The notes under the pieces: generated by a model | What the model saw: only the letters and a program-made list of their open reading frames with translations | Databases searched by the model: none | Told to the model about the DNA's origin: nothing | In this document: positions 766 to 13,332 of the stretch, in pieces | How the letters are laid out: the number at the start of each line of letters is the position of its first letter | Position numbering within the stretch: position 1 is the first letter of the stretch | Origin: Candidatus Omnitrophota bacterium | GTDB lineage: Bacteria > Omnitrophota > 4484-213 | Assembly: GCA_030640885.1 (NCBI GenBank) | Contig: DAOWIN010000083.1 | Coordinates: 1 to 26,282 of the forward strand | DNA length: 26,282 nucleotides | Reading direction: 5' to 3' | Position numbers and translations under genes: made by a program

Positions 766-841
766 GGGCGGTTAGCTCAGCCGGGAGAGCGTTTCCTTGA
801 CGTGGAAAAGGTCACAGGTTCGAGCCCTGTACCGCCCACCA
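766..841 (+). tRNA. tRNA-Val(GAC)
   Basis: Acceptor GGGCGGT (766-772)/ACCGCCC (831-837), D-arm TAGCTCAG, anticodon stem TTTCC/GGAAA with GAC at 799-801, GGTTCGAG T-loop, encoded CCA; 76 nt. Confidence 0.97.
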
Positions 842-848
842 ACCCTTC

Positions 849-1129
849 CAAATTTGCCCGAAGGGAAATTTGAGCCTGCGATAGTGAGCGTGAGCGAACG
901 GACGCAGGATAAAGGCAAGGTTGTGCGAAGCGAGAGCCGAGGAGTGCGCGAGCAAAGCGAGCAAGCGACGAGGATAGAAAGGTTTGCGAAAGCAAACTTT
1001 CGCTGTTCCATTTTCCTTTTTCGCCGTTAGGCAAGACATTGCCGAAAGCGATGTCAGGTTCTTTGCGAAGCGAGAGCCTGAAGAGTGAGCGAAGCGAGGC
1101 TCTTCAGGATAAAGGCAAGATTGTTCGAA
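849..1129 (+). repeat. Cluster of about 3 modular REP-like hairpin units downstream of tRNA-Val
   Basis: caggataaaggcaag(g/a)ttgt(g/t)cgaa at 905-929 and 1105-1129 (23/25 identical); gcgaagcgagagcc at 925-938 and 1065-1078; stems cctgcg/cgcagg (875-908) and cctgaagag/ctcttcagg (1077-1108). Confidence 0.85.
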
Positions 1130-1141
1130 TGGTAAATCCCA

Positions 1142-2970: not shown

Positions 2971-3495
2971 ATTTCTAAAAGACCTATAAGAGAAAAGAGA
3001 ACAAGGATAAACAGGCAAATCTGGGCAAAGGAGATTCGGCTTATTGACGCAAAAGGAACGCAAAGAGGAATTTTACCTTTGGAAGAGGGGTTAAAATTGG
3101 CGCAAGAGGAGGAGTTGGATTTAGTGGAAATTGCTCCCAATGCCAAACCTCCGGTATGCCGAGTTATCGATTTCAGTAAATTTAAATACGAGCAAAATAA
3201 GCGAAAAAAGGAGGCACAAAAGAAGCATAAAAAAGGAGATTTAAAAGAGATTAGGGTGCGTCCTTATATCAGTGAACATGATTATAATACAAAACTCCAA
3301 CAGGCAAGCAAATTTTTGCAGGAAAGGCATAAAGTAAAAATAAGATTGTTTTTTAAAGGGAGAGAAATAAAATTTCTGGATAATGGGCGAAAGGTTATAG
3401 AAAGATTTGTTGAGGCATTGAAGGATAAAGGAAAAGTAGAGGTTTCTCCTTTCAAAGAAAGAAGAAATATAGTAGTAGTAATAGCGCCTATGTAG
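2971..3495 (+). CDS. infC: Translation initiation factor IF-3, probable ATT start
   Basis: RINRQI...IRLID...LDLVEIAPNAKPPVCRVID...KYE...LKEIR...HDYNTK is the IF-3 pattern. SD-like AGGGGGTGA (2958-2966) lies just before in-frame ATT at 2971, and there is no in-frame ATG upstream. Confidence 0.93.
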   Translation: MSKRPIREKRTRINRQIWAKEIRLIDAKGTQRGILPLEEGLKLAQEEELDLVEIAPNAKPPVCRVIDFSKFKYEQNKRKKEAQKKHKKGDLKEIRVRPYISEHDYNTKLQQASKFLQERHKVKIRLFFKGREIKFLDNGRKVIERFVEALKDKGKVEVSPFKERRNIVVVIAPM

Positions 3496-3497
3496 GT

Positions 3498-3525
3498 TAC
3501 AAGCCACAAGCTTCAAGCCACAGGT
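3498..3525 (+). repeat. 7-nt-period tract after the infC stop
   Basis: tacaagc cacaagc ttcaagc cacaggt. Confidence 0.8.
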
Positions 3526-3551
3526 TAAAAAATCAATGCAGGATTAGTAAA

Positions 3552-3746
3552 ATGAAAAGGAAAACTAAAAAAAGTATTAGCAAGCGTTTTAAAATAACCA
3601 AAACAGGCAAGGTAAAAAGAAGCAAGGCTTACGGCAACCATCTTTTGAGTAAAAAAAGCGGCAAAAGAATGCAACGATTAAAATCAGCAGATTTGGTGAA
3701 TAAAGCCGATAGCAAAAAGATTAAAACTTTATTGGCGCATAAATAG
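3552..3746 (+). CDS. rpmI: 50S ribosomal protein L35
   Basis: 64 aa, basic; KTKKSISKRFKITKTGKV...HLLSKKS. Confidence 0.97.
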   Translation: MKRKTKKSISKRFKITKTGKVKRSKAYGNHLLSKKSGKRMQRLKSADLVNKADSKKIKTLLAHK

Positions 3747-3748
3747 GT

Positions 3749-3776
3749 TTTAAGCTACAAGCTGCAGGTTGCAAGT
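3749..3776 (+). repeat. 7-nt-period tract after the rpmI stop
   Basis: tttaagc tacaagc tgcaggt tgcaagt. Confidence 0.8.
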
Positions 3777-3889
3777 AAGAAAAAGAAAGGATAATGAATA
3801 GATTCTGCGGGTTAACCGCAGAATGATACTCGATGTCTTTTTGCAGAATAGATAAATATTTTTTTTAAAAGGCAACGAAAGGAGAAAAT

Positions 3890-4237
3890 ATGTCGCGGGC
3901 AACTAACGCACCGGCTTCTCGCAGAAGAAGAAAAAAGATTTTAAAATTAGCAAAGGGGTTTCGCGGGGGAAGAAGTAAGCTTTTTCGAACAGCTGCCGAA
4001 ACAGTAAAAAGGGCTTTGGCTTACAACTACCGCGACCGTAAGGTTAGAAAAAGAAATTTTAGAAGCCTATGGATAATCCGCATAAATAACGCCGCAAGAA
4101 TTAACGGCACCACCTATCGCAGTCTTATTCAAGGCTTAAAGAAAGCAAATATTGAATTGGACAGAAAGATGTTAGCAGATTTAGCAGTCAATGATGCCGA
4201 GGCGTTTAAGAAGATTGTGGAAGTGGTGAAAAAATAA
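3890..4237 (+). CDS. rplT: 50S ribosomal protein L20
   Basis: [16 protein letters not shown]...[23 protein letters not shown]...[10 protein letters not shown]; SD gaaaggag. Confidence 0.98.
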
Positions 4238-4312
4238 AAACAAGAGTTTTACAAAAATTCCTCCGCCCCGAAGTTTCGGAGTTTCGACTCAAATTTTGCC
4301 TTGCCTTCAGAC

Positions 4313-4364
4313 AGAACCTTTAACCTGCTCCATTCCCCGCCTCAGGCGGGAGAAAGGAAAGGAG
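4313..4364 (+). repeat. REP-like hairpin plus shared 15-nt RBS segment upstream of trkA
   Basis: cctgctccattc (4324-4335, identical to 11637-11648); cccgcc-tca-ggcggg hairpin (4336-4350); gagaaaggaaaggag (4350-4364). Confidence 0.85.
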
Positions 4365-4371
4365 ATTTCTA

Positions 4372-5061
4372 ATGCGACAGTTTGCTGTAATTGGTTTAGG
4401 AAGATTCGGTTCAAGCGTAGCAAAAACTTTAAGCGAAAAAGGCCATCAGGTTTTAGGAATTGACATCAACATAGAAAAAGTGCAAAATATTTCTTCCTTG
4501 ATTACGCAAGCTGTGCAAATAGATGCCACAGATGGAAAAGCGTTAAGAAAATTAGCGGCTAAGGATGTAGATGTAGCTATCGTCGCTGTTGGCAAAAATT
4601 TAGAAGCAAGTATTTTAATTACCTTAATTTTAAAAGAAATGGAGGTAAAAGAGATTGTAACAAAGGCGGTTGAAGAAATTCAGGGTAAAGTTTTGCGAAA
4701 AATAGGGGCTACTAAAGTTGTTTTTCCAGAACGAGATATGGGAATCCAGTTAGCCAATAGTTTAATATCCTCGCAGATTATTGAATATATTAATCTTTCT
4801 TCGGATTATGGCGTTATCGAGATAGTTGCCCCTTCAATTTTCATTGATAATTCTCTGCAGCAATTAAATATTCGCAGTAAATATAAAGCAAATGTCATTG
4901 CTATAAAAAAGAAAATCCCTTCTATCACAGATAAAGGAGACACAGAAATAAAACAAGAAATTAATATTTCTCCCGCAGGTAACGACATAATTAAAAAGGG
5001 TGATACTCTAATAGTAATAGGCAAAAGTAAAGATATTGAAAAACTGCAAAAGCTAAAATAA
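4372..5061 (+). CDS. trkA: TrkA/KtrA-type K+ uptake regulatory subunit (RCK_N + RCK_C)
   Basis: FAVIGLGRFG NAD-binding motif, DATD, VVFPERDMG, and a C-terminal RCK_C domain. Confidence 0.92.
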   Translation: MRQFAVIGLGRFGSSVAKTLSEKGHQVLGIDINIEKVQNISSLITQAVQIDATDGKALRKLAAKDVDVAIVAVGKNLEASILITLILKEMEVKEIVTKAVEEIQGKVLRKIGATKVVFPERDMGIQLANSLISSQIIEYINLSSDYGVIEIVAPSIFIDNSLQQLNIRSKYKANVIAIKKKIPSITDKGDTEIKQEINISPAGNDIIKKGDTLIVIGKSKDIEKLQKLK

Positions 5062-5065
5062 ATAG

Positions 5066-6166
5066 ATGCCAACCGTTCATGTCAATTTAGATAAAAGGAA
5101 TTATCCTATTGTTGTTGGTAATGAAATTTTAAAAGATATAGGCGATTCGCTGCAGAATTTTGAAGCAATTTCTAAAATAGCAATTGTCATCAATCCTCTT
5201 GTTGCAAGCTTTCATTTAAAAAGCGTCAAAGAAAGCCTGCTTAATAAAGGATTTAAGGTATCTGTTATTATTGTTCCCGATGGGGAAAAATTCAAGGATT
5301 ATAGACAGCTATTAAACATACACAGAAAGTTGGTTCAAGAAAAATTAGACCGCAGGTCTTTGATTATAGCGTTAGGTGGCGGAGTAATTGGCGACATAAG
5401 CGGCTTTGCCGCTGCTACCTTTATGCGTGGAATTCGTTATGTCCAGATTCCTACTTCTTTATTGGCACAAGTAGACAGCTCAATTGGCGGAAAAACAGGG
5501 ATAAATTTTTTAAAGATTAAAAACTTAATCGGCAGTTTTTATCAGCCTAAATTGGTTTATACGGATGTTTCTTTGCTTCGCACACTTTCCCAAGAAGAAT
5601 TGCATAATGGTTTGGCAGAGGTAATTAAATACGGCGTAATTAAAGACGCAGGTTTTTTTCAATATTTAGAAAAAAATATAGAGAAAATTTTGGATTTGGA
5701 TCTTTCCTGTTTGGAAAAAGTAGTTTTTCAATGTGCTGAGATTAAAGCAAAGATTGTTCAAGAGGACGAAAAGGAAAAAGGGATAAGGACAATTCTGAAT
5801 TATGGACATACATTGGGACACTGTTTCGAAACAGTGAGTAAATTTAGCTATAAACACGGGCAGGCGGTTTCTTTAGGTATGGTTTACGCCGGCAAAATTG
5901 CCCAAAAAATAGGGTTGCTGAATAGAGAAGATGCAAAAAAGATAGAAAGGTTATTGCAGAAGGCGCATTTGCCGGTATCTCCCTTAAAAAAGTTCAATCC
6001 TCAAGAAATATTGGCAATATTAGAAATGGATAAAAAGAGAAGTGCAGGCAAACAAAAATTTGTTCTTCCCAAAAAGATCGGTCAAGTAATTATCAAAGAC
6101 GACATCCCCATAGAGTTACTTAAAGAGGTTTTGCTAAATGCTAAAGAAAATAATATCTTTTCTTAA
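5066..6166 (+). CDS. aroB: 3-dehydroquinate synthase
   Basis: ALGGGVIGD, FMRGI, PTSLLAQVDSSIGGKTG, LNYGHTLGH, HGQAV. Confidence 0.97.
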   Translation: MPTVHVNLDKRNYPIVVGNEILKDIGDSLQNFEAISKIAIVINPLVASFHLKSVKESLLNKGFKVSVIIVPDGEKFKDYRQLLNIHRKLVQEKLDRRSLIIALGGGVIGDISGFAAATFMRGIRYVQIPTSLLAQVDSSIGGKTGINFLKIKNLIGSFYQPKLVYTDVSLLRTLSQEELHNGLAEVIKYGVIKDAGFFQYLEKNIEKILDLDLSCLEKVVFQCAEIKAKIVQEDEKEKGIRTILNYGHTLGHCFETVSKFSYKHGQAVSLGMVYAGKIAQKIGLLNREDAKKIERLLQKAHLPVSPLKKFNPQEILAILEMDKKRSAGKQKFVLPKKIGQVIIKDDIPIELLKEVLLNAKENNIFS

Positions 6167-6283
6167 AAAGATATTCGCCGCAGAGAAGTTCCTCTGCGAT
6201 AGCTGCAGATATAACTACAGCAATGTTTGTTTTCGCAGAGAAAGACCAAATGCTGAAGAATGCCCAAACTATAAAAGAAAATA

Positions 6284-7834
6284 ATGAAAAATGTTTTCAA
6301 GGTAAGCATTTTTTGCCTTTTTTTGTTTTTTTTAATCCTTATTTTTTGCTTTTCTTTTTCCCGTCCATCCTTGTCTCAACCTTGGGAGAAAGAAATGAGT
6401 GAACAGATAAGAAAACCTGCTGTGGCGGGGATGTTTTACCCATCAGGAGCAGAAAAATTAAGCAGTCAAATAAACGATTATCTAAATAAAGTTCCTCCAC
6501 TGCATATAGAAGAAAAAATTGTTGCTATTATCAGCCCACACGCCGGTTATGAATTTTCTGGGGGTGTAGCGGCTTATAGCTTTAAAGCAATTGAGCAAAG
6601 GGATTTTTCTACAGTAGTTATAATTGGTCCCAGCCATTATGTTTATTTTAAAGGCATTTCTGTTTATGCGGAGGGATATTACCAAACACCATTGGGAAAT
6701 GTAGAAATAGATAGAGAGTTGAGTAAAGCAATAATTAATAATTCCAATATCCATTTCTATCCGTCCGCTCATCAACGCGAACATTCTATAGAGGTGGAAA
6801 TTCCCTTTCTTCAAACAGTCTTAAAAAATTTCAAGATTGTTCCTATAATAATGGGCGATTGTTCTTATCAAGATTGTTTGGACTTGGGCGAGGCAATCGC
6901 CGAGAATTCAAAAGATAAAAAGACGCTTATTGTGGCAAGCACTGATTTTTCTCATTTTTATCCCTCTGAGAAAGCAAGAATTTTGGATAAAACAAGCTTA
7001 GATGAAATCAAAAAATTCAACCCTCAAGAGCTATACAAGAAGGTCCAAACCGAAGAATGCCAGCTCTGCGGAGCAATGCCAGTAGTAACTACGCTAATTG
7101 CGGCTCAAACATTGGGCGCGGATAAAATTGAACTTTTGAAATATCTTCATTCCGGCGATGTTACCGGCGATAACTCACGGGTGGTAGGTTATGGGAGCAT
7201 GATAGTAATCGGCTCCAAGCCGCAAGTTGCAGGCTACAGGCAAGAAATAAAAAAAGATAAGAAAGGAAAATTAAGCAATGAAGAAAAGAAAAGATTACTT
7301 AGTATTGCCCGGGAGGCGATTGGAAGCTATGTAATCAAGCGGAAAAAACCGGAAATGCATGAAACTAATCCTGAACTCATAAAAAAAAGAGGCGTCTTTG
7401 TAACGCTTACCCAAAATGGACAATTAAGGGGTTGTATCGGCTATATTCAGGCTGTAAAACCATTATGCGAAGCAGTAACAGATATGGCTATTGAAGCGGC
7501 GGTTAACGACCCCCGTTTTAGTCCTTTGCAAAAAGAGGAATTAAGCAAAATTAAAATAGAGATTTCTGTTTTGTCGCCGTTAAAAAGGATTAAAGATACG
7601 CAAGAAATCAAGATTGGTAGAGATGGAATTTTTATCCGCAAAGGATTTGACTCCGGTTTGCTCCTGCCTCAAGTAGCTACAGAAAATAATTGGAATAAGG
7701 ATGAATTTTTGAAGCAGGGTTGTTATAAAGCTGGTTTGCCCGCTGATGCGTGGAAAAAGGGAGCAGAAATTTATACTTTCAGTGCAGAAATATTTGATGA
7801 ATCACTGATTACGCTGATAGAAAAACCCCACTGA
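6284..7834 (+). CDS. amrB: AmmeMemoRadiSam system protein B (Memo-like) fused to protein A (AMMECR1-like); alternative start ATG 6395
   Basis: RKPAVAGMFYP, PHAGY, IGPSH, EHSIEV, STDFSH, CG, SGD...VVGY (Memo domain), followed by RGVFVTL...LRGCIG...DPRF...EISVLS...LLLPQV (AMMECR1 domain). Confidence 0.92.
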   Translation: MKNVFKVSIFCLFLFFLILIFCFSFSRPSLSQPWEKEMSEQIRKPAVAGMFYPSGAEKLSSQINDYLNKVPPLHIEEKIVAIISPHAGYEFSGGVAAYSFKAIEQRDFSTVVIIGPSHYVYFKGISVYAEGYYQTPLGNVEIDRELSKAIINNSNIHFYPSAHQREHSIEVEIPFLQTVLKNFKIVPIIMGDCSYQDCLDLGEAIAENSKDKKTLIVASTDFSHFYPSEKARILDKTSLDEIKKFNPQELYKKVQTEECQLCGAMPVVTTLIAAQTLGADKIELLKYLHSGDVTGDNSRVVGYGSMIVIGSKPQVAGYRQEIKKDKKGKLSNEEKKRLLSIAREAIGSYVIKRKKPEMHETNPELIKKRGVFVTLTQNGQLRGCIGYIQAVKPLCEAVTDMAIEAAVNDPRFSPLQKEELSKIKIEISVLSPLKRIKDTQEIKIGRDGIFIRKGFDSGLLLPQVATENNWNKDEFLKQGCYKAGLPADAWKKGAEIYTFSAEIFDESLITLIEKPH

Positions 7835-7864
7835 TTACACTGACATTTTCTCAATGGCATCAGT
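7799..7864. repeat. gattacactga/catcagt short-period repeat overlapping the amrA 3' end
   Basis: cactgattacgctga (7803-7817), cactgattacactgacat (7829-7846), complementary arm catcagt (7858-7864). Confidence 0.75.
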
Positions 7865-7884
7865 ACTAATAAGGAGCGTAAAAA

Positions 7885-8781
7885 ATGAAAATGAGTTTTT
7901 GGAAAAGCTTGGGACAGAGTTTTAATCCCAAATTTTATAATGAGATTGCCGAACAAGGTTTTGGAAAAAGCTTCAAATATTTAGTTTTATTTTTGCTTTT
8001 GGTAGGTTTGCTTATTGGAGGAAAATTTAGTTTTGTAATAAAAACTGGACTGCAGCAGGCAAATCAGTGGATAAGCGAAAATCTTCCCGGAAAGATGAAG
8101 GAATATTTACCTCAGCAGATAGAGATAAAAAATGGCAAGCTCTCTGTTGATGCAGAACAGCCGTTTATCCGTCTGTTAGCAGAGGAAGGGGCATTTATTG
8201 TTGACACAACCGGCAAAATTACCTCATTAGACGATTATAAAAATGGGCTTCTAATAACCGAAACTAAGCTAATTTTTAAACAAACAAAACCAACTGGCGC
8301 TGTAGAAACAAAAGAACAGAGCTTTGCAAATGTGCCTTTATTAAATATAAAACCAGGGGACAATAGCAGAGGAGAAATTATTAAACTGGCATGGAAAAGT
8401 TCACCGACAGAACCTGAACAGTTTTTTGTCTTAACCTATGAGCTCCTTGACAAATGGGCAAGGACCCTCTGGAAAATTGCTTTTCTTCCTTTCTTTATGT
8501 TTTTATTTGTTTATTTTCTGATTAGCAAACTTTTGCAATTATTTTTGTTTAGTCTTGTTTCTTTAATTACAAATGCAATCATAAACGCAAAACTGCAATA
8601 TAAAAATTTACTTAATATTGGGATTTATGCTCTCACTCCGGCAACCTTCTTAGCCACCTTATTTATTCTATTTAATGTGCGCATCCCAGCGTTTGGACTT
8701 ATCTATATTCTCATTTACTCAACATTTTTGGCTTTGGGTGTTGTCCATGTTTCACGCCAGAGACTGCAGGTTGCAGATTAA
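7885..8781 (+). CDS. DUF1189-like membrane protein
   Basis: 298 aa; SFNPKFY...GKSFKYLVLFLLL N-terminal TM, a soluble middle region, and 3 C-terminal TMs with IYALTPA; SD aaggag. Confidence 0.7.
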   Translation: MKMSFWKSLGQSFNPKFYNEIAEQGFGKSFKYLVLFLLLVGLLIGGKFSFVIKTGLQQANQWISENLPGKMKEYLPQQIEIKNGKLSVDAEQPFIRLLAEEGAFIVDTTGKITSLDDYKNGLLITETKLIFKQTKPTGAVETKEQSFANVPLLNIKPGDNSRGEIIKLAWKSSPTEPEQFFVLTYELLDKWARTLWKIAFLPFFMFLFVYFLISKLLQLFLFSLVSLITNAIINAKLQYKNLLNIGIYALTPATFLATLFILFNVRIPAFGLIYILIYSTFLALGVVHVSRQRLQVAD

Positions 8782-8800
8782 ATTTGCATTATTCACAAAT

Positions 8801-8865
8801 GAATCATTGATTACACTGACATCTTCATCAGTGCCATCAGTGTTTCTTCATCAGTGCCATCAGTG
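8801..8865. repeat. gattacactga element plus 21-nt tandem duplication
   Basis: tgattacactgacat (8808-8822) is identical to 7832-7846; tcttcatcagtgccatcagtg occurs at 8822-8842 and 8845-8865. Confidence 0.85.
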
Positions 8866-8883
8866 CTAAAATGGAGGTCTAAA

Positions 8884-9810
8884 ATGCAGGGAGACAAAAA
8901 AAAAGAACATATTGTTCTATGGATTGTTTTAGTTTCATTTGCCCTATTAGCTCTTTTAGCGCCAATAATACTAATCCCGAATTTTTTTCGCGCGAAAGAA
9001 AAAGCAAAGCAAAGAAGTCTTCAAACTTCTCGTCAAATATCCTCTAAAAAATATAGTTCTTCGCTGGATACAAAAAAGAAAAGAAGAGCTTCTAAAGTTA
9101 AGAAAAAGTCTGCCAGAGAAACAAGTCTTGAGGCAATTGCCGAAATTGAAAGAAAAATAGCAGAGATAAAAAGTTATCGGGTGGATTTTAAGTCTAAAAT
9201 TATTCGCAAAGGAAAGTCTGCAACGGAAAAAGAGGGCTACGGGATTTCTTTGCAGCCTGATAATCTTAAAGTCAAACTTACCAATAAAGTAAAACTTATT
9301 GATGAAGCAAAATTTAACAATAAAAATAAATTTTCGCTTCAACAAACAGATATTCTTATAGATAGAACCAACCTCTGGCAGCTCAAACCTGATCAGAAAA
9401 CTGCTTATTCTTCAAATGTGAGCAATTTAAGCCCCGCGGCAAAGGAAATAACTGCGGGAGGAATACTACATTTTAGTACTGATATTGGCGCTTTAAAAGA
9501 GACGTTGACAAATGGTTCGGCAAAATTGAAACGCACAGAATATTTAAATGGAGAAAAGATTTTTGCAATTGAACTATCTTTCCAATCTTTAAAAACAAAC
9601 TCTACTTTGAACTTTACACCTTTTGCCGGTAAAATACTTAGTTATCTTAGCGCTGAAAATGGTCTTCCTAAAATGAATATTTTCTACAATAAGCGAGGAA
9701 AAGAAATTATGACTATTTTCTTAAAATTTTCGCGCATAAACCAAATTAGCAAAGACGAATTTAACATTCTTCCTGATTGGGAAATAGTAGATATAAGACA
9801 TAACAGATAA
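8884..9810 (+). CDS. Membrane-anchored LolA-like (lipoprotein carrier fold) protein
   Basis: SD GGAGG (8873-8877) before ATG 8884; the ORF-track GTG start lies inside a repeat. N-terminal TM, Lys/Ser-rich linker, then IKSYRVDFKSKI and ILIDRTNLWQLKPDQKTAY, which resemble LolA-like domains. Confidence 0.6.
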   Translation: MQGDKKKEHIVLWIVLVSFALLALLAPIILIPNFFRAKEKAKQRSLQTSRQISSKKYSSSLDTKKKRRASKVKKKSARETSLEAIAEIERKIAEIKSYRVDFKSKIIRKGKSATEKEGYGISLQPDNLKVKLTNKVKLIDEAKFNNKNKFSLQQTDILIDRTNLWQLKPDQKTAYSSNVSNLSPAAKEITAGGILHFSTDIGALKETLTNGSAKLKRTEYLNGEKIFAIELSFQSLKTNSTLNFTPFAGKILSYLSAENGLPKMNIFYNKRGKEIMTIFLKFSRINQISKDEFNILPDWEIVDIRHNR

Positions 9811-9827
9811 TTTGATAGAAAATTTGC

Positions 9828-9846
9828 ACTTGAGTTTCGCTCAAGT
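9828..9846 (+). terminator. Possible intrinsic terminator hairpin
   Basis: acttgag/ctcaagt stem with tttcg loop, 17 nt after the stop at 9810; the U-tract is weak (cttct). Confidence 0.35.
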
Positions 9847-10027
9847 CTTCTATGGACCAACATTATTCCACTTTAGGCGAATCAAGTTAAAAACAGAATA
9901 ATTTATCAAAGAACGGTAAAAGAAGCTAGATAACAAAATTTGCTTTGCAATAGGGTTTCACGAGACTGAAGGTGTAGAAACTGGTTTGTCGTTATGGAAG
10001 CTGGTATCGAAACTGGAATCTTGGTGT

Positions 10028-10150
10028 GGGAACGGAACACGAAATTAGGCTTAAAATGCGAAAAAATCGAGCTTCGAGTTTCCGCAACGAGCATCGATAC
10101 GAGCATTGACAACCTTAAACAATATGTTATGAATTTCGTGTTCCGTTCCC
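10028..10150. repeat. 19-bp perfect inverted repeat enclosing 85 bp
   Basis: gggaacggaacacgaaatt (10028-10046) is the exact reverse complement of aatttcgtgttccgttccc (10132-10150). Confidence 0.92.
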
Positions 10151-10202
10151 CGCCTAAGGCGGGTCATCTCGCAGGCTCTCGCTCTGCGAGAAAGGAAAGG
10201 AG
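10149..10202 (+). repeat. REP-like double hairpin plus shared 15-nt RBS segment
   Basis: cccgcc-taa-ggcggg (10149-10163), ctcgcag/ctgcgag (10168-10190), gagaaaggaaaggag (10188-10202). Confidence 0.85.
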
Positions 10203-10208
10203 GATATC

Positions 10209-10475
10209 ATGTCACAACATCCAAGTTTAAAATCAAACACAATGGGACGGCATCGTAGCGTGCTTAAGCGTTTAGAAAGAATTAAGATCTTAAAAGAGAA
10301 CGAAAAATGGAAAGATGAAGATTCTCCTTTGGGATTACCCAAGGTTAAAAGCATAAAAATCAAAGTAAAGAAACAAAAAGCGGAAAAAGCTAGCGAGGAA
10401 ACGAAAAAAGAAAAACCAGCCGTAGAAGCAAAAGGCAAAGAAGTGAAAAGCAAGGAATCAAAAGGTAAGAAATAA
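10209..10475 (+). CDS. Small basic protein (PVC-superphylum signature family, TIGR04137-like) with Lys/Glu-rich tail
   Basis: MSQHPSLK...RSVLKRLERIKIL...W...SPLGLPKVK matches the family pattern as recalled. Confidence 0.85.
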   Translation: MSQHPSLKSNTMGRHRSVLKRLERIKILKENEKWKDEDSPLGLPKVKSIKIKVKKQKAEKASEETKKEKPAVEAKGKEVKSKESKGKK

Positions 10476-10476
10476 A

Positions 10477-10962
10477 ATGCATATCCGGAAGTTTAGAGCG
10501 CAAGATAATGAAAGGGTGGAAAAATTTATCCGTTTTATTTTTAAAAATGAATTTTCTGATATGCTTCCTGTTTTTTCTGAAGACGACTTAAAAGACATAA
10601 AAGAACACTATTCAGGCAAAAAAGAGGGCTTTTTTGTAGCGATAGAAAAGAATGAGATTGCCGGAACAATTGGAATCAAGGAAGATGATAAAGTTGAAAA
10701 TAAGGCTTTGCTTCGCCGTATTTTCGTTCATCCCAAACACCGCCGCAAAGGATATGGTTTAAAACTGTTAGATAAAGCAATACAATTTTGCAAAGATAAA
10801 AGCTATGCTACAGCAATTTTCCGCTCTACAAACAAAATGTCTGCGGCAAATAACCTTGTCCAAAAGAGAAAGTTTGTAGAAAGAGAGCATTTGGATTTCC
10901 CTTTAGATAAAGGAAAACAGATTGAGATTGTTAAATTTGTATTGAATTTGAACAATTTTTGA
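10477..10962 (+). CDS. GNAT family N-acetyltransferase
   Basis: FFVA...IAGTIGI, LRRIFVHPKHRRKGYGLKLL (acetyl-CoA-binding motif A). Confidence 0.9.
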   Translation: MHIRKFRAQDNERVEKFIRFIFKNEFSDMLPVFSEDDLKDIKEHYSGKKEGFFVAIEKNEIAGTIGIKEDDKVENKALLRRIFVHPKHRRKGYGLKLLDKAIQFCKDKSYATAIFRSTNKMSAANNLVQKRKFVEREHLDFPLDKGKQIEIVKFVLNLNNF

Positions 10963-11014
10963 TTTCGCAGATTAAAAACAAGTATCCGTCACAGACGGAT
11001 AACAGGAGGAAAAA

Positions 11015-11599
11015 ATGAAATTGTTATTTGCCCTAATCGCTTTTTTCTCTGCTTTACTTTTCTTATTGCTGGGCGGTGTATTAATTGCAGCGGTAATAAA
11101 CCCATTTACTTTAGGTTTACTTTTCGATTTTTTATTTAGAATTTCTCAGATTCCTAATTTCTCTTTTTTTGCTGTAACATTAGGAATACTTTTTATTCTT
11201 ACGGCTTTTTTGATTCTGTATCTATTAGAAAAAAACTACCGAAGAGAGAAAACCATTGCCCTAAACGGAAAAAACGGAAAAATCACAATGGCTGTTTCGG
11301 TAATTGAAGATTTGATAAAAAGGTCAGTGGAGAATTTATTGGATATAAAAGAAATAAACTCAAAAATACTGCTCAAAAAAAAGAGCATAAAAATAATATC
11401 CAAAATTACACTTTTTTCCACGGCAAATATACCCAAAATTACTGATGAAACTCAAAAGATAATAAAGGCGCAAATAGAAGAGGCATTAAATATCAAAGAA
11501 GATGTAGATGTAGAGATTTATGTATCTAAAATTGTAGAAAAAAGCGATAAAGAAAGGATAAGAGAAAAGAAAGAATTGGCAAAACAGATATCTATATGA
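11015..11599 (+). CDS. amaP: Alkaline shock response membrane anchor protein AmaP-like
   Basis: Two N-terminal TMs, then GKITMAVSVIEDLIK and an Asp23-like C-terminal domain; SD aggagg. Confidence 0.75.
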   Translation: MKLLFALIAFFSALLFLLLGGVLIAAVINPFTLGLLFDFLFRISQIPNFSFFAVTLGILFILTAFLILYLLEKNYRREKTIALNGKNGKITMAVSVIEDLIKRSVENLLDIKEINSKILLKKKSIKIISKITLFSTANIPKITDETQKIIKAQIEEALNIKEDVDVEIYVSKIVEKSDKERIREKKELAKQISI

Positions 11600-11626
11600 T
11601 AGAAAAGGAAAGAATGGAAAAGGAAA

Positions 11627-11695
11627 AGAACCTTATCCTGCTCCATTCGCTTCGCTCACTCTCGCAGGCTCTCGCTTCGCGAGAAAGGAAAGGAG
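11627..11695 (-). repeat. REP-like unit (reverse complement of 1065-1115) plus shared 15-nt RBS segment on the + strand
   Basis: tcgcttcgctcactct (11647-11662) and caggctctcgcttcgc (11665-11680) are exact reverse complements of 1082-1097 and 1065-1080; gagaaaggaaaggag at 11681-11695. Confidence 0.9.
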
Positions 11696-11701
11696 GAGAA
11701 A

Positions 11702-12718
11702 ATGCGCGTAGGAATTTTGACAGGGGGAGGGGATTGCCCTGGCCTCAATGCAGTAATTAGAGCGGTTACCAGAAAAGGGCTACAGGAAGGTTTTGAAATA
11801 ATCGGATTTAAAAATGGTTGGCAGGGTTTGATAGAAAATGATTTTGTCAATTTAGATTTGAATTCGGTGTCGGGAATTTTGCCTCGTGGGGGAACCATTT
11901 TAGGAACCTCACGCACTAATCCTTACAAAAAAGAAGAAGACACCCGTAAAGTAAAGGAAAATTTCAATAATATTGACAATTTAATCGCTATAGGAGGAGA
12001 AGATACCTTAGGAGTTGCTTTTAAGTTGTTCGAAGAGGGATTGAATGTAATAGGGGTTCCCAAGACCATCGATAATGACCTCTCTTGCACGGATTACACC
12101 TTTGGTTTTGACACAGCCATTAATATTGTCAGCGAAGCCATTGACCGCTTGCACACTACTGCTGAATCACATCACCGGGTAATGGTTGTAGAAGTTATGG
12201 GAAGGCATAGCGGATGGATTGCTGTTGAGGGAGGAATTGCTGGTGGCGCCGATGTTATCTTAATTCCTGAAATTCCTTTCGATATTCAAATGGTTTATGA
12301 ATTAATAAATAAACGGCATCAGCGAGGAAAAAAATTCAGCATTGTAGTAGTCGCTGAAGGAGCAAAGTTCAAAAAAGATTTTGCTCTTCAAGAAGAAAAT
12401 CGCGACGCCTTTGGCCATGTGCATTTAGGGGGAATTGCTAATTTGCTGGCTGAAGAGATTGAAAAAGGAACAGGGTTTGAAACGCGAGTTGTAGTTTTAG
12501 GTCATCTCCAGCGCGGAGGAAGCCCTTCTGCTTTTGATCGAATATTAGGAACGCGATTAGGAATAAAAGCAATAGAGTTAGTAAAAGAGAAAAACTTCGG
12601 ACAAATGGCCGCTTTACAGGGGAATAAAATAATTTCCGTGTCTCTGAAAGACGCTGTAGGAACCCTAAAAGTAGTGGATGAAGAATTTTACAAGATTGCT
12701 GAAGTATTTTTTGGGTAA
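11702..12718 (+). CDS. pfkA: 6-phosphofructokinase (PfkA family, group III-like)
   Basis: TGGGDCPGLNAVIR, GGTILGTSR, GGEDT, PKTIDND, EVMGRHSGW, LGHLQRGG. Confidence 0.95.
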   Translation: MRVGILTGGGDCPGLNAVIRAVTRKGLQEGFEIIGFKNGWQGLIENDFVNLDLNSVSGILPRGGTILGTSRTNPYKKEEDTRKVKENFNNIDNLIAIGGEDTLGVAFKLFEEGLNVIGVPKTIDNDLSCTDYTFGFDTAINIVSEAIDRLHTTAESHHRVMVVEVMGRHSGWIAVEGGIAGGADVILIPEIPFDIQMVYELINKRHQRGKKFSIVVVAEGAKFKKDFALQEENRDAFGHVHLGGIANLLAEEIEKGTGFETRVVVLGHLQRGGSPSAFDRILGTRLGIKAIELVKEKNFGQMAALQGNKIISVSLKDAVGTLKVVDEEFYKIAEVFFG

Positions 12719-12720
12719 TT

Positions 12721-12736
12721 TATACGCTATACGCTA
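12721..12736. repeat. 7-nt-period tract (tacgcta)
   Basis: tatacgctatacgcta is the exact reverse complement of 18236-18251. Confidence 0.75.
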
Positions 12737-12744
12737 AAAACAAA

Positions 12745-13332
12745 ATGCAAGAAAAAATACAAAAAATTCTTGAGGAAAGCATTAATGTTAAGCAAAAATT
12801 AAAAGAAAGCTATTGTACTGATTTAATTTCCAAAATCATAGGTTTAATAATTCAATGTTTGCAGAATAAAGGGAAAGTGATGCTCTGCGGTAATGGCGGC
12901 AGTGCAGCTGATGCTCAGCACTTAGCCGCTGAGTTCGTAAATAGATTTAAAAAAGAAAGAAAGCCCCTGCCGGCGCTTGCCCTTACTACCGACACCTCCA
13001 TTATTACCAGCATTGCTAATGATTATTCTTACTCGGAGATCTTTTCTAAACAGATATTGGCTCTGGGCAAAAAAGAAGATATTCTGCTCGCCATTTCTAC
13101 CAGCGGACAAGCCGATAATGTGATTACTGCTGCGCAGATGGCTAAAAACTTAGGAATAAAAACAATCGCTTTAAGCGGTAAAGACGGAGGGAAATTGAAA
13201 GAGGTTGCTGATATTTGTTTAATTGTTCCTTCTGATGACACCGCCCACATCCAAGAAACCCATATTACTATCGGGCATATTATTTGTGAGATTGTAGAGG
13301 AAAAAATATTTAGCATCAAAAGCAATGAATGA
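12745..13332 (+). CDS. gmhA: D-sedoheptulose 7-phosphate isomerase
   Basis: CGNGGSAADAQHLAAE, ALTTDTS, ANDY, ISTSG, HIQETH. Confidence 0.97.
   Translation: MQEKIQKILEESINVKQKLKESYCTDLISKIIGLIIQCLQNKGKVMLCGNGGSAADAQHLAAEFVNRFKKERKPLPALALTTDTSIITSIANDYSYSEIFSKQILALGKKEDILLAISTSGQADNVITAAQMAKNLGIKTIALSGKDGGKLKEVADICLIVPSDDTAHIQETHITIGHIICEIVEEKIFSIKSNE

Follow-up and report, generated by a model that had tools for sequence, protein, structure and literature searches.

The stretch of DNA studied here, hereafter the window, consists of the 26,282 nucleotides (nt) of contig DAOWIN010000083.1 from a Candidatus Omnitrophota bacterium (assembly GCA_030640885.1) and contains three genes that are each preceded by a copy of a repeat element carrying a Shine-Dalgarno (SD) sequence. 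The genes, all on the plus strand, are trkA (4372..5061 in the list of open reading frames, ORFs), a gene for a small basic protein (10209..10475) and pfkA (11702..12718), with identities backed by Pfam and NCBIfam: TrkA_N and TrkA_C, TIGR04137 (75.4 bits, cut-off 50) and the PFK domain (E=6e-114), respectively. An initial annotation, made from the letters of the window, had pointed to an identical 15-mer, GAGAAAGGAAAGGAG, 6-7 nt before the ATG of each gene, fused to exchangeable hairpin modules. This was borne out by a scan of the window: exact matches lie on the plus strand at 4350-4364, 10188-10202 and 11681-11695, which leaves gaps of 7, 6 and 6 nt to the ATGs at 4372, 10209 and 11702. With up to two mismatches five matches were found in the window versus 0.13 expected, and none of 100 shuffles reached five. 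The hairpin modules were also found at the sites claimed, with cctgctccattc at 4324 and 11637, cccgcc-tca-ggcggg at 4336, cccgcc-taa-ggcggg at 10149 and ctcgcaggctctcgc at 10168 and 11661.

The pfkA leader contains a full length copy (11612..11695, plus strand; E=1.6e-17 with the covariance model R1 described below). Its 5' part is an A/G-rich linker with gaatggaaaagg, followed by the motif gaaccttatcc; hairpin 1 has the arms cctgc (11637-11641) and gcagg (11664-11668), hairpin 2 is ctcgc-ttc-gcgag (11671-11683) and the tail occupies 11681-11695. The copy in the trkA leader (4299..4364, plus strand; E=3.6e-6) is truncated: it has the 5' motif aacctttaa and cctgctccattc (4324-4335), lacks the 3' arm of hairpin 1, and continues with hairpin 2 cccgcc-tca-ggcggg (4336-4350) and the tail 15-mer (4350-4364). 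The copy before the small basic protein gene (10115..10202, plus strand; E=3.9e-6) is a mosaic in which cccgcc-taa-ggcggg (10149-10163) occupies the position of hairpin 1, followed by linker ctcgcaggctct, hairpin 2 ctcgc-tct-gcgag (10178-10190) and the tail 15-mer (10188-10202). The 5' part of this mosaic copy doubles as the right arm of another inverted repeat, a perfect one of 19 bp that pairs approximately 10028-10046 with 10132-10150. It lies in a region of about 400 nt without ORF (9811-10208) upstream of the small basic protein gene; the equivalent position in three related genomes (G001, G002 and G003) is the end of a TPR-like gene.

The host genome (G000) is a metagenome-assembled genome (MAG) of 1,298,994 bp with 37.7% G+C, in which the window is contig C1. 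Since it is 85.7% complete and divided over 167 contigs, many of which end in copies, the copies counted are minimum numbers and the absence of a gene carries little weight. The only sequencing run listed as containing the stretch is a DNA run from a cold-seep metagenome, probably its source; no RNA run is listed. Across the genome there are 20 exact copies of the 15-mer, each with a hairpin directly 5' of it, and in 18 of these 20 cases an ORF of at least 30 amino acids (aa) starts 4-11 nt further on. A profile built from the 15-mer copies (nhmmer) gave 52 genomic hits with E<1e-3, and R1, made from 42 aligned copies, gave 58 genomic matches with E<=0.01. Thus extended, the 15-mer is the 3' tail of a mosaic element of about 85 nt that consists, in order, of a 5' pyrimidine motif ACCTTTATCC, hairpin 1, GGCTCT, hairpin 2 and the purine tail GAG-AAAGG-AAAGGAG; some copies have an additional A/G-rich linker (AAGAATAAAGAAATAAG...GAATGGAGAAG) 5' of ACCTTTATCC. 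Hairpin 1 is either CCTGCG...CGCAGG around TTCGCTTCGCTCA or CCTGAAGAG...CTCTTCAGG. Hairpin 2 has triloops and occurs as CTCGC-TTC-GCGAG, CCCGCC-TNA-GGCGGG, CCGACG-CTTC-CGTCGG or a CCCGAT... variant. The alternative hairpins have interchangeable stems at fixed positions in the element, in agreement with the modular, chimera-like make-up that the initial annotation had read from the three window copies. A target duplication of the start-codon region at pfkA was considered and rejected: since AGAATGGA(A/G)AAG, the motif on the left, is also found at unrelated genes, it belongs to the element. A coding reading, as a mini-ORF or N-terminal extension, was also rejected, given that the ATG of the left linker is in differing frames between copies and that module lengths differ.

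Placement relative to genes was mapped with a crude ORF picker with a 90-aa minimum. Both neighbouring genes are co-oriented with the element at 29 of the 52 profile hits and opposite to it at four; the remainder have one co-oriented neighbour and a contig end (11), mixed neighbours (seven) or an opposite neighbour and a contig end (one). An ORF of at least 30 aa begins 2-12 nt past the tail, with a mode of 7 nt, at 37 of the 52 hits, a count from which one ORF on contig C52 was removed as the reverse complement of a tRNA (38 to 37). Curated families were matched above cut-off by 27 of 36 downstream ORFs. Among them are L21, S2, S20, EF-Tu, HU, DnaN, a DEAD-box helicase, ACP, a pilin, OmpA, a porin, a thioredoxin-domain protein, a bactofilin, RibH, PFK, TrkA, GH94, a papain-like protease and two GLUG proteins. 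Five copies without ORF are the upstream members of tandem pairs, in which the tail GAGAAGAAAGAA... runs into the linker of the next copy, and four others are reversed, adjoin the 3' ends of tRNAs and have degenerate tails. The tail is hence kept where it is used and lost in the tandem-upstream and tRNA-adjoining reversed copies. The window holds two reversed copies, both on the minus strand. One adjoins the 3' end of tRNA-Val (766-841) at 837..933 (E=3.9e-5) and has lost its SD tail; the other lies between tRNA-Val and thrS at 1008..1133 (E=3.6e-5) and has the CCTGAAGAG/CTCTTCAGG variant as hairpin-1 stem. The unit at 1065-1115 within the latter had been taken for the pfkA copy in reverse complement; it does belong to the family, in reverse orientation, but does not match that copy exactly. 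Three further copies without downstream ORF, two in the host genome (C26:6662-6760 and C23:3652-3785) and one in G004 (C23:9349-9480), are instead followed by a conserved stretch TAGGGGCAACTTCTCTATCG..., also found on contig C132 and upstream of trkA in G004, without Rfam match.

The tail is tied to the element rather than to a background of SD sequences, contrary to what the initial annotation had named as the observation that would speak against it: the 11-mer AAGGAAAGGAG has 42 genomic occurrences, 33 of which fall within element hits and two more of which accompany hairpin 2 alone. The last AAAGGAG(G) of the tail lies 2-12 nt, most often 7 nt, before start codons. In a genome of the sister genus (G001) the 16S rRNA ends in ...GGATCACCTCCTTTAT, and the tail stretch complements the 16S tail CCUCCUUU; AAAGGAGG forms a full complement of it and the upstream AAAGGA a second, partial one. 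A 16S gene was not found in the 85.7% complete host genome. Near its 3' end the 16S gene of G001 (C77; L184 at about 3200-3940) is interrupted by some 700 nt that contain an open frame, and only beyond this insertion does the conserved ...AACAAGGTAGCC...GGATCACCTCCTTT end follow.

Hairpin structure was evaluated over the alignment of 42 copies. In the two-helix structure 93.7% of 527 cells pair, and sliding the partner columns by 1-3 positions reduces pairing to 38-51%. Changes on both sides of a helix were found in 48 cells versus 13.7 in shuffles, none of 500 shuffles reaching 48, although the cells counted come from paralogues and are non-independent events. Hairpin 2 ends its 3' arm with the GAG of the 15-mer, which covaries with its partner as CTC/GAG, CTT/AAG and CAT/ATG. 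Non-Watson-Crick pairs in the helices, read on the gene strand, are G·U or U·G in 27 cases and A·C or C·A in seven. Folds of the three window copies on the gene strand have z=-1.6, -3.2 and -2.8, the latter two for the copies before the small basic protein gene and trkA, versus z=-0.09 for the antisense strand of the pfkA copy. The G·U excess and the sense-only fold scores moderately favour an RNA structure on the transcribed strand. Screening against Rfam 15 returned only two tRNAs and one chance snoRNA hit in the window (E<=1), and only tRNAs at seven further loci (E<=0.01).

Orthologous sites in related genomes differ in occupation. At trkA three of the five family genomes have a copy, truncated in the host, full in G003 and variant in G004; in G001 the site is occupied by a different repeat, and in G002 there is a 17-nt gap without copy. 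The small basic protein gene has a copy in the host only (one of four genomes), with none in G001, G003 or G002. At pfkA the copy is likewise restricted to the host among four family genomes; its place is taken in G001, G003 and G002 by a native site of the GGGAGGTGA type, which overlaps the stop upstream. Hence the leaders show presence and absence at all three genes, and not the conservation by vertical descent that would have spoken against the initial annotation. R1 gave no match over 80 metagenomic pfkA loci (68-83% aa identity), and by eye 78 of 79 such loci lack a copy. The remaining one (L185, 650-736, Ga0164310_10099485; 83% aa identity) has a decayed copy of the sister-genus type, with broken stems and an intact AAGGAAAGGAGG tail, so that the pfkA site is seen occupied a second time, by a copy of another type.

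Comparison with the sister genus gives the same picture for genes outside the window. A downstream ORF is present at 31 sister-genus copies; 24 of these ORFs have a homologue in the host, with a copy at eight (seven genes) and none at 16. After removal of five weak or partial rows 19 clear orthologues are left, eight with and 11 without copy. The nearest relative of each of the 52 host copies lies within the host genome: orthologous copies are 65-76% identical, and paralogues reach 79 of 80 positions (the pfkA copy versus one on contig C110). Paralogues are thus closer than orthologous copies, which implies recent spread or homogenisation. It could be argued that the leaders are vertically inherited and independent of each other, or arose as an artefact of the assembly of a repeat-rich MAG, without any spread. 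The seven genes with a copy in both genera would fit the former, and the latter would fit Logan contigs of the probable source metagenome, an independent assembly, which break within the pfkA copy. But these same contigs span the copies at trkA and the small basic protein gene, gene order around the pfkA copy agrees with that in relatives, three separately assembled sister-genus genomes have the same architecture, and neither the closeness of paralogues nor the variable occupation of three of three window sites and 11 of 19 clear orthologous sites would be expected. We find this explanation barely credible.

The family has a narrow phylogenetic range. R1 gave 21, 21 and 18 matches in the three genomes of the sister genus, which are underestimates because R1 is tuned to host copies; it also missed the decayed copy of the sister type. 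No match was found in the third genus of the family or in 36 genomes of other families, except for two marginal single hits. At E<=1e-4 only four of 151 genomes of the phylum match, namely those of this genus and the sister genus. The frame pattern TTATCC...GGCTCT...AAGGA gave 27, 13, 5 and 3 matches in these four genomes, and 0-3 scattered and mostly non-hairpin hits in 197 others, with 0-1 for the reversed control; a look-alike in G018 was a singleton by BLAST. Copies in the sister genus have the frame TATCC-[hairpin 1]-GGCTCTCGCC-NNN-GGCGAG-nAAGGAAAGGAG followed by the start codon, with different hairpin-1 modules, and precede the genes for GroEL, GroES, EF-Ts, a cold-shock protein (CspA) and L19 as well as IlvC, IlvD, glutamine synthetase, SecD, a pilin and one tRNA. 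In the literature searched no description of such an element in Omnitrophota was found. The pattern TTCGCTTCGCTCA-N3-5-GCAGGCTC also occurs at 38 loci (L072-L109) in genome contigs versus, by rough estimate, about one expected; some 30 of the 38 are from unrelated phyla (Chloroflexota, Dehalococcoidia, Gammaproteobacteria, Planctomycetota and others) and lie inside a different repeat, cccTTCGCTTCGCTCAAGGGCAGGCTC.

The initial annotation had called the element REP-like, after repetitive extragenic palindromes (REPs), and had suggested a search for genes of REP-associated tyrosine transposases (RAYTs) flanked by the same motifs. Genes with PF01797, the domain of RAYT-like Y1 transposases, occur in G000, G001, G003 and G004; they score 65-70 bits against NF047646, below its cut-off of 80. 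The flanks of these genes, out to about 2 kb, contain no R1 match even at E<0.2; the palindromes there are of other kinds. Since PF01797 is common in the phylum (32 of 41 genomes), co-occurrence says little. A link with RAYTs is not supported, and the REP-like label holds as an analogy, not as membership of the REP/RAYT system. The host gene (G000:C156:1-480, L148) is interrupted by an in-frame TAG and cut off by the end of its contig. Homologues from the sister genus (L144-L147; 224-243 aa) have their own flanking palindromes, for instance ACTTGCACC-TACG-CGGTGCAAGT.

Taken together, we consider it fairly probable that the three leaders belong to one lineage-specific family of mosaic repeats, about 85 nt long, that spreads, or is homogenised by conversion, as a leader cassette supplying an SD sequence. 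The core proposal of the initial annotation, a dispersed modular element that provides SD sequences to unrelated genes, is thereby upheld by 58 matches, fixed modules and strict orientation and spacing. From the sequence we further infer mobility as a non-autonomous element, transcription and processing of the copies, use of their SD and a role in translation or RNA stability. Copies would be gained, lost or overwritten 5' of genes, mostly between co-directional genes, and would replace the native ribosome-binding site (RBS) with their own, so that the downstream gene stays translatable. Likeness within the genome would be maintained by recent spread or gene conversion. With less confidence, the hairpins may fold in the mRNA, on the gene strand, and may form a structured boundary that affects processing or stability of the downstream cistron, with RNase Y as the recognisable endonuclease. 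RNase Y is present in the host (714.8 bits), and RNase J and RNase E/G were not found in its 85.7% complete genome. Precedents for RNase Y are cggR-gapA and the sae operon, and integron attC provides a further comparison. A consensus scan found neither promoter nor terminator inside the three window copies; the sigma-70-like consensus, which may not be that of the host, matched 19 sites over 3800-12800 versus 22.8 expected.

Several observations weigh against this interpretation, besides the lower-bound nature of the counts and the dependence among paralogues in the covariation. No terminal inverted repeat was found in the element, whose ends share only CCTTT/AAAGG (5 bp). Comparison of filled and empty pfkA sites revealed no target duplication, in relatives that at about 75% nt identity are too distant to fix the insertion ends; none of the 80 metagenomic loci offered a closer empty site. 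Nor was a parent element found: the 5' motif, core and linker have two to four hits each outside the element in the 85.7% complete genome, none flanking a gene. Hairpin covariation fits a role at the level of single-stranded DNA equally well. In copies with a TTC loop the minimum-energy fold takes a competing hairpin (CTCGCAGGC with GCTTCGCGAG) over hairpin 1, and the decayed hairpins of L185 as well as the truncated trkA copy indicate that the full structure is dispensable for the genes. Finally, folding is stronger in the 37 element leaders than in 200 other leaders with an SD (mean -30.0 versus -18.5 kcal/mol), and the element leaders have a lower predicted SD accessibility (0.38 versus 0.52, p=6e-4), because the pyrimidine 5' motif is predicted to pair with the purine tail; the modelled accessibility argues against a simple enhancer with an exposed strong RBS.

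In a rival explanation the element is a purely selfish DNA repeat, with hairpins that serve mobilisation as single-stranded DNA, as in REPs or miniature inverted-repeat transposable elements, and that have no role in RNA. The SD tail would then simply make insertions tolerable, much as the coupled ORF of mycobacterial interspersed repetitive units (MIRUs) would, a precedent provided by the sections on MIRUs in PMC12548453. Filled and empty orthologous sites and near-identical paralogues are consistent with this, as are the occurrence of both orientations including reversed copies after tRNAs, the many contigs that end in copies and the retention of the tail in L185 while its hairpins decayed. 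On the other hand, such a repeat might be expected to show the terminal repeats, target duplication or cognate transposase that were not found here, the RAYT-like genes having other palindromes. The 27:7 ratio of G·U over A·C and the sense-only fold scores point to the transcribed strand, and abundant-protein genes are served in both genera by mostly different sets: EF-Tu, ACP and ribosomal proteins in one, GroEL/ES, EF-Ts, CspA and L19 in the other. A purely selfish nature is possible, but we think it doubtful.

Another rival, with which the lower SD accessibility agrees, is a post-transcriptional regulon. Here the 5' motif CCUUUAUCC would pair with the purine tail and mask the SD, such that about 50 genes are switched jointly by temperature, by a helicase or cold-shock protein or by a binding protein. 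The motif is near-invariant and complementary to AAAGG, of which the tail holds two units, minimum-energy folds often pair the two, and the source is probably a cold-seep metagenome. Against this, the closing helix between motif and tail lacks covariation, both sides being invariant, and the pairing partner varies between copies; moreover, the 5' motif of the sister genus is different (TTTCTATCC) and no Rfam family matches. Such a regulon seems improbable to us. A CsrA regulon, suggested by two GGA motifs in the tail, was rejected as CsrA was not found in any of the five family genomes.

A more far-reaching version of the SD-supplying cassette would be a domesticated, self-renewing standard leader that runs translation initiation of 4-5% of the genes in a streamlined Omnitrophota family. 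It would serve different abundant proteins in each genus, exert shared post-transcriptional control by its anti-SD-like 5' motif and RNase Y-type processing, and be kept uniform by gene conversion. We regard this version as unlikely; if true, the standard leader would amount to a naturally occurring equivalent of an RBS part that is insulated and regulated. Dispersed bacterial repeats usually lie at gene ends and affect expression incidentally, and here a repeat provides the RBS for dozens of genes, covers core translation and chaperone genes and turns over between sister genera. Should the hairpins also be active in the mRNA, a single small cassette would govern translation and stability for a large part of the strongly expressed proteins in an uncultivated lineage with small genomes, and would offer a compact model from nature for leader or RBS parts that are portable. 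In practice, gene callers and screens for regulatory RNAs will keep taking the copies for gene-specific leaders, and the copies fragment assemblies, as is seen from the many contigs of this MAG that end in them.

Two other repeats were encountered at leaders. The first is a second family of hairpin repeats, with ACTGATTACACTGAT units facing ATCAGTGCCATCAGTG units, found in the window at 7799-7870 and 8801-8870, flush with the SDs of a DUF1189 gene (7885) and of an ORF at 8854. It has 36 units on about 20 host contigs, and DNA searches gave matches in G001 and G004. The other, of about 130 nt, ends in ...AACTTACG-loop-CGTAAGTT..CTTATTAAAA directly at the ATG, without SD, and has four copies in the host (C56:1329, C68:2771, C97:4352 and C149:5203). 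In G001 the sites at trkA and the small basic protein gene (L065 and L066) have a repeat of this third kind where the host has the SD-carrying element.

Among known systems, Neisseria REP2 and the similar Borrelia inverted repeat are described in the pertinent section of PMC3184786 as dispersed repeats without terminal inverted repeats, with two internal stem-loops and an RBS, that form 5' leaders; REP2 is said there to include a promoter and ATG. Compared by description, the Omnitrophota repeat resembles REP2 in its RBS, its two stem-loops and its position directly upstream of many unrelated ORFs. It differs in that it ends 2-12 nt before starts, with gene-specific spacers and start codons and without internal ATG, lacks a sigma-70-like promoter in the three window copies, is mostly intercistronic and has interchangeable hairpin modules. 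MIRUs, according to the parts of PMC12548453 and PMC3184786 that deal with them, are 40-100 bp long, lie between co-directional genes in the same orientation, have filled and empty sites and maintain translation after insertion by means of an internal ORF coupled to the start codon. Filled and empty sites, co-directional placement and continued translation of the downstream gene are common to both, but our repeat has no conserved reading frame and supplies an SD instead of a coupled ORF: indels in its hairpin modules are not divisible by three, and the sole ORF of the pfkA copy is out of frame and extends past the start. The TAACTGA direct repeats of marine Beggiatoaceae are characterised, in the portion of PMC4679880 concerned with them, as abundant, intergenic and directed towards start codons, with a proposed role in translation. 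They share the orientation to start codons and an end few nt upstream, but are tandem repeats of a heptamer without hairpins that mostly replace a recognisable SD.

REP copies lie mainly at the 3' ends of genes or in inverted pairs and have no fixed relation to starts. The repeat shares with REPs, with bacterial interspersed mosaic elements (BIMEs) and with REP doublets (REPINs) the short G+C-rich palindromes with compensatory changes, the mosaic and sometimes tandem arrangement and the restriction to a lineage. It differs from the REP and REPIN-RAYT systems by having no link with RAYTs, one orientation towards starts (29 of 52 co-oriented, 37 of 52 before an ORF) and an SD of its own. By analogy, Neisseria REP2 and MIRUs would be closest in function and BIMEs closest in mosaic make-up. 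Dispersed repeats that carry an RBS are a kind already known, to which the Omnitrophota family with its modular hairpins would add a variant.

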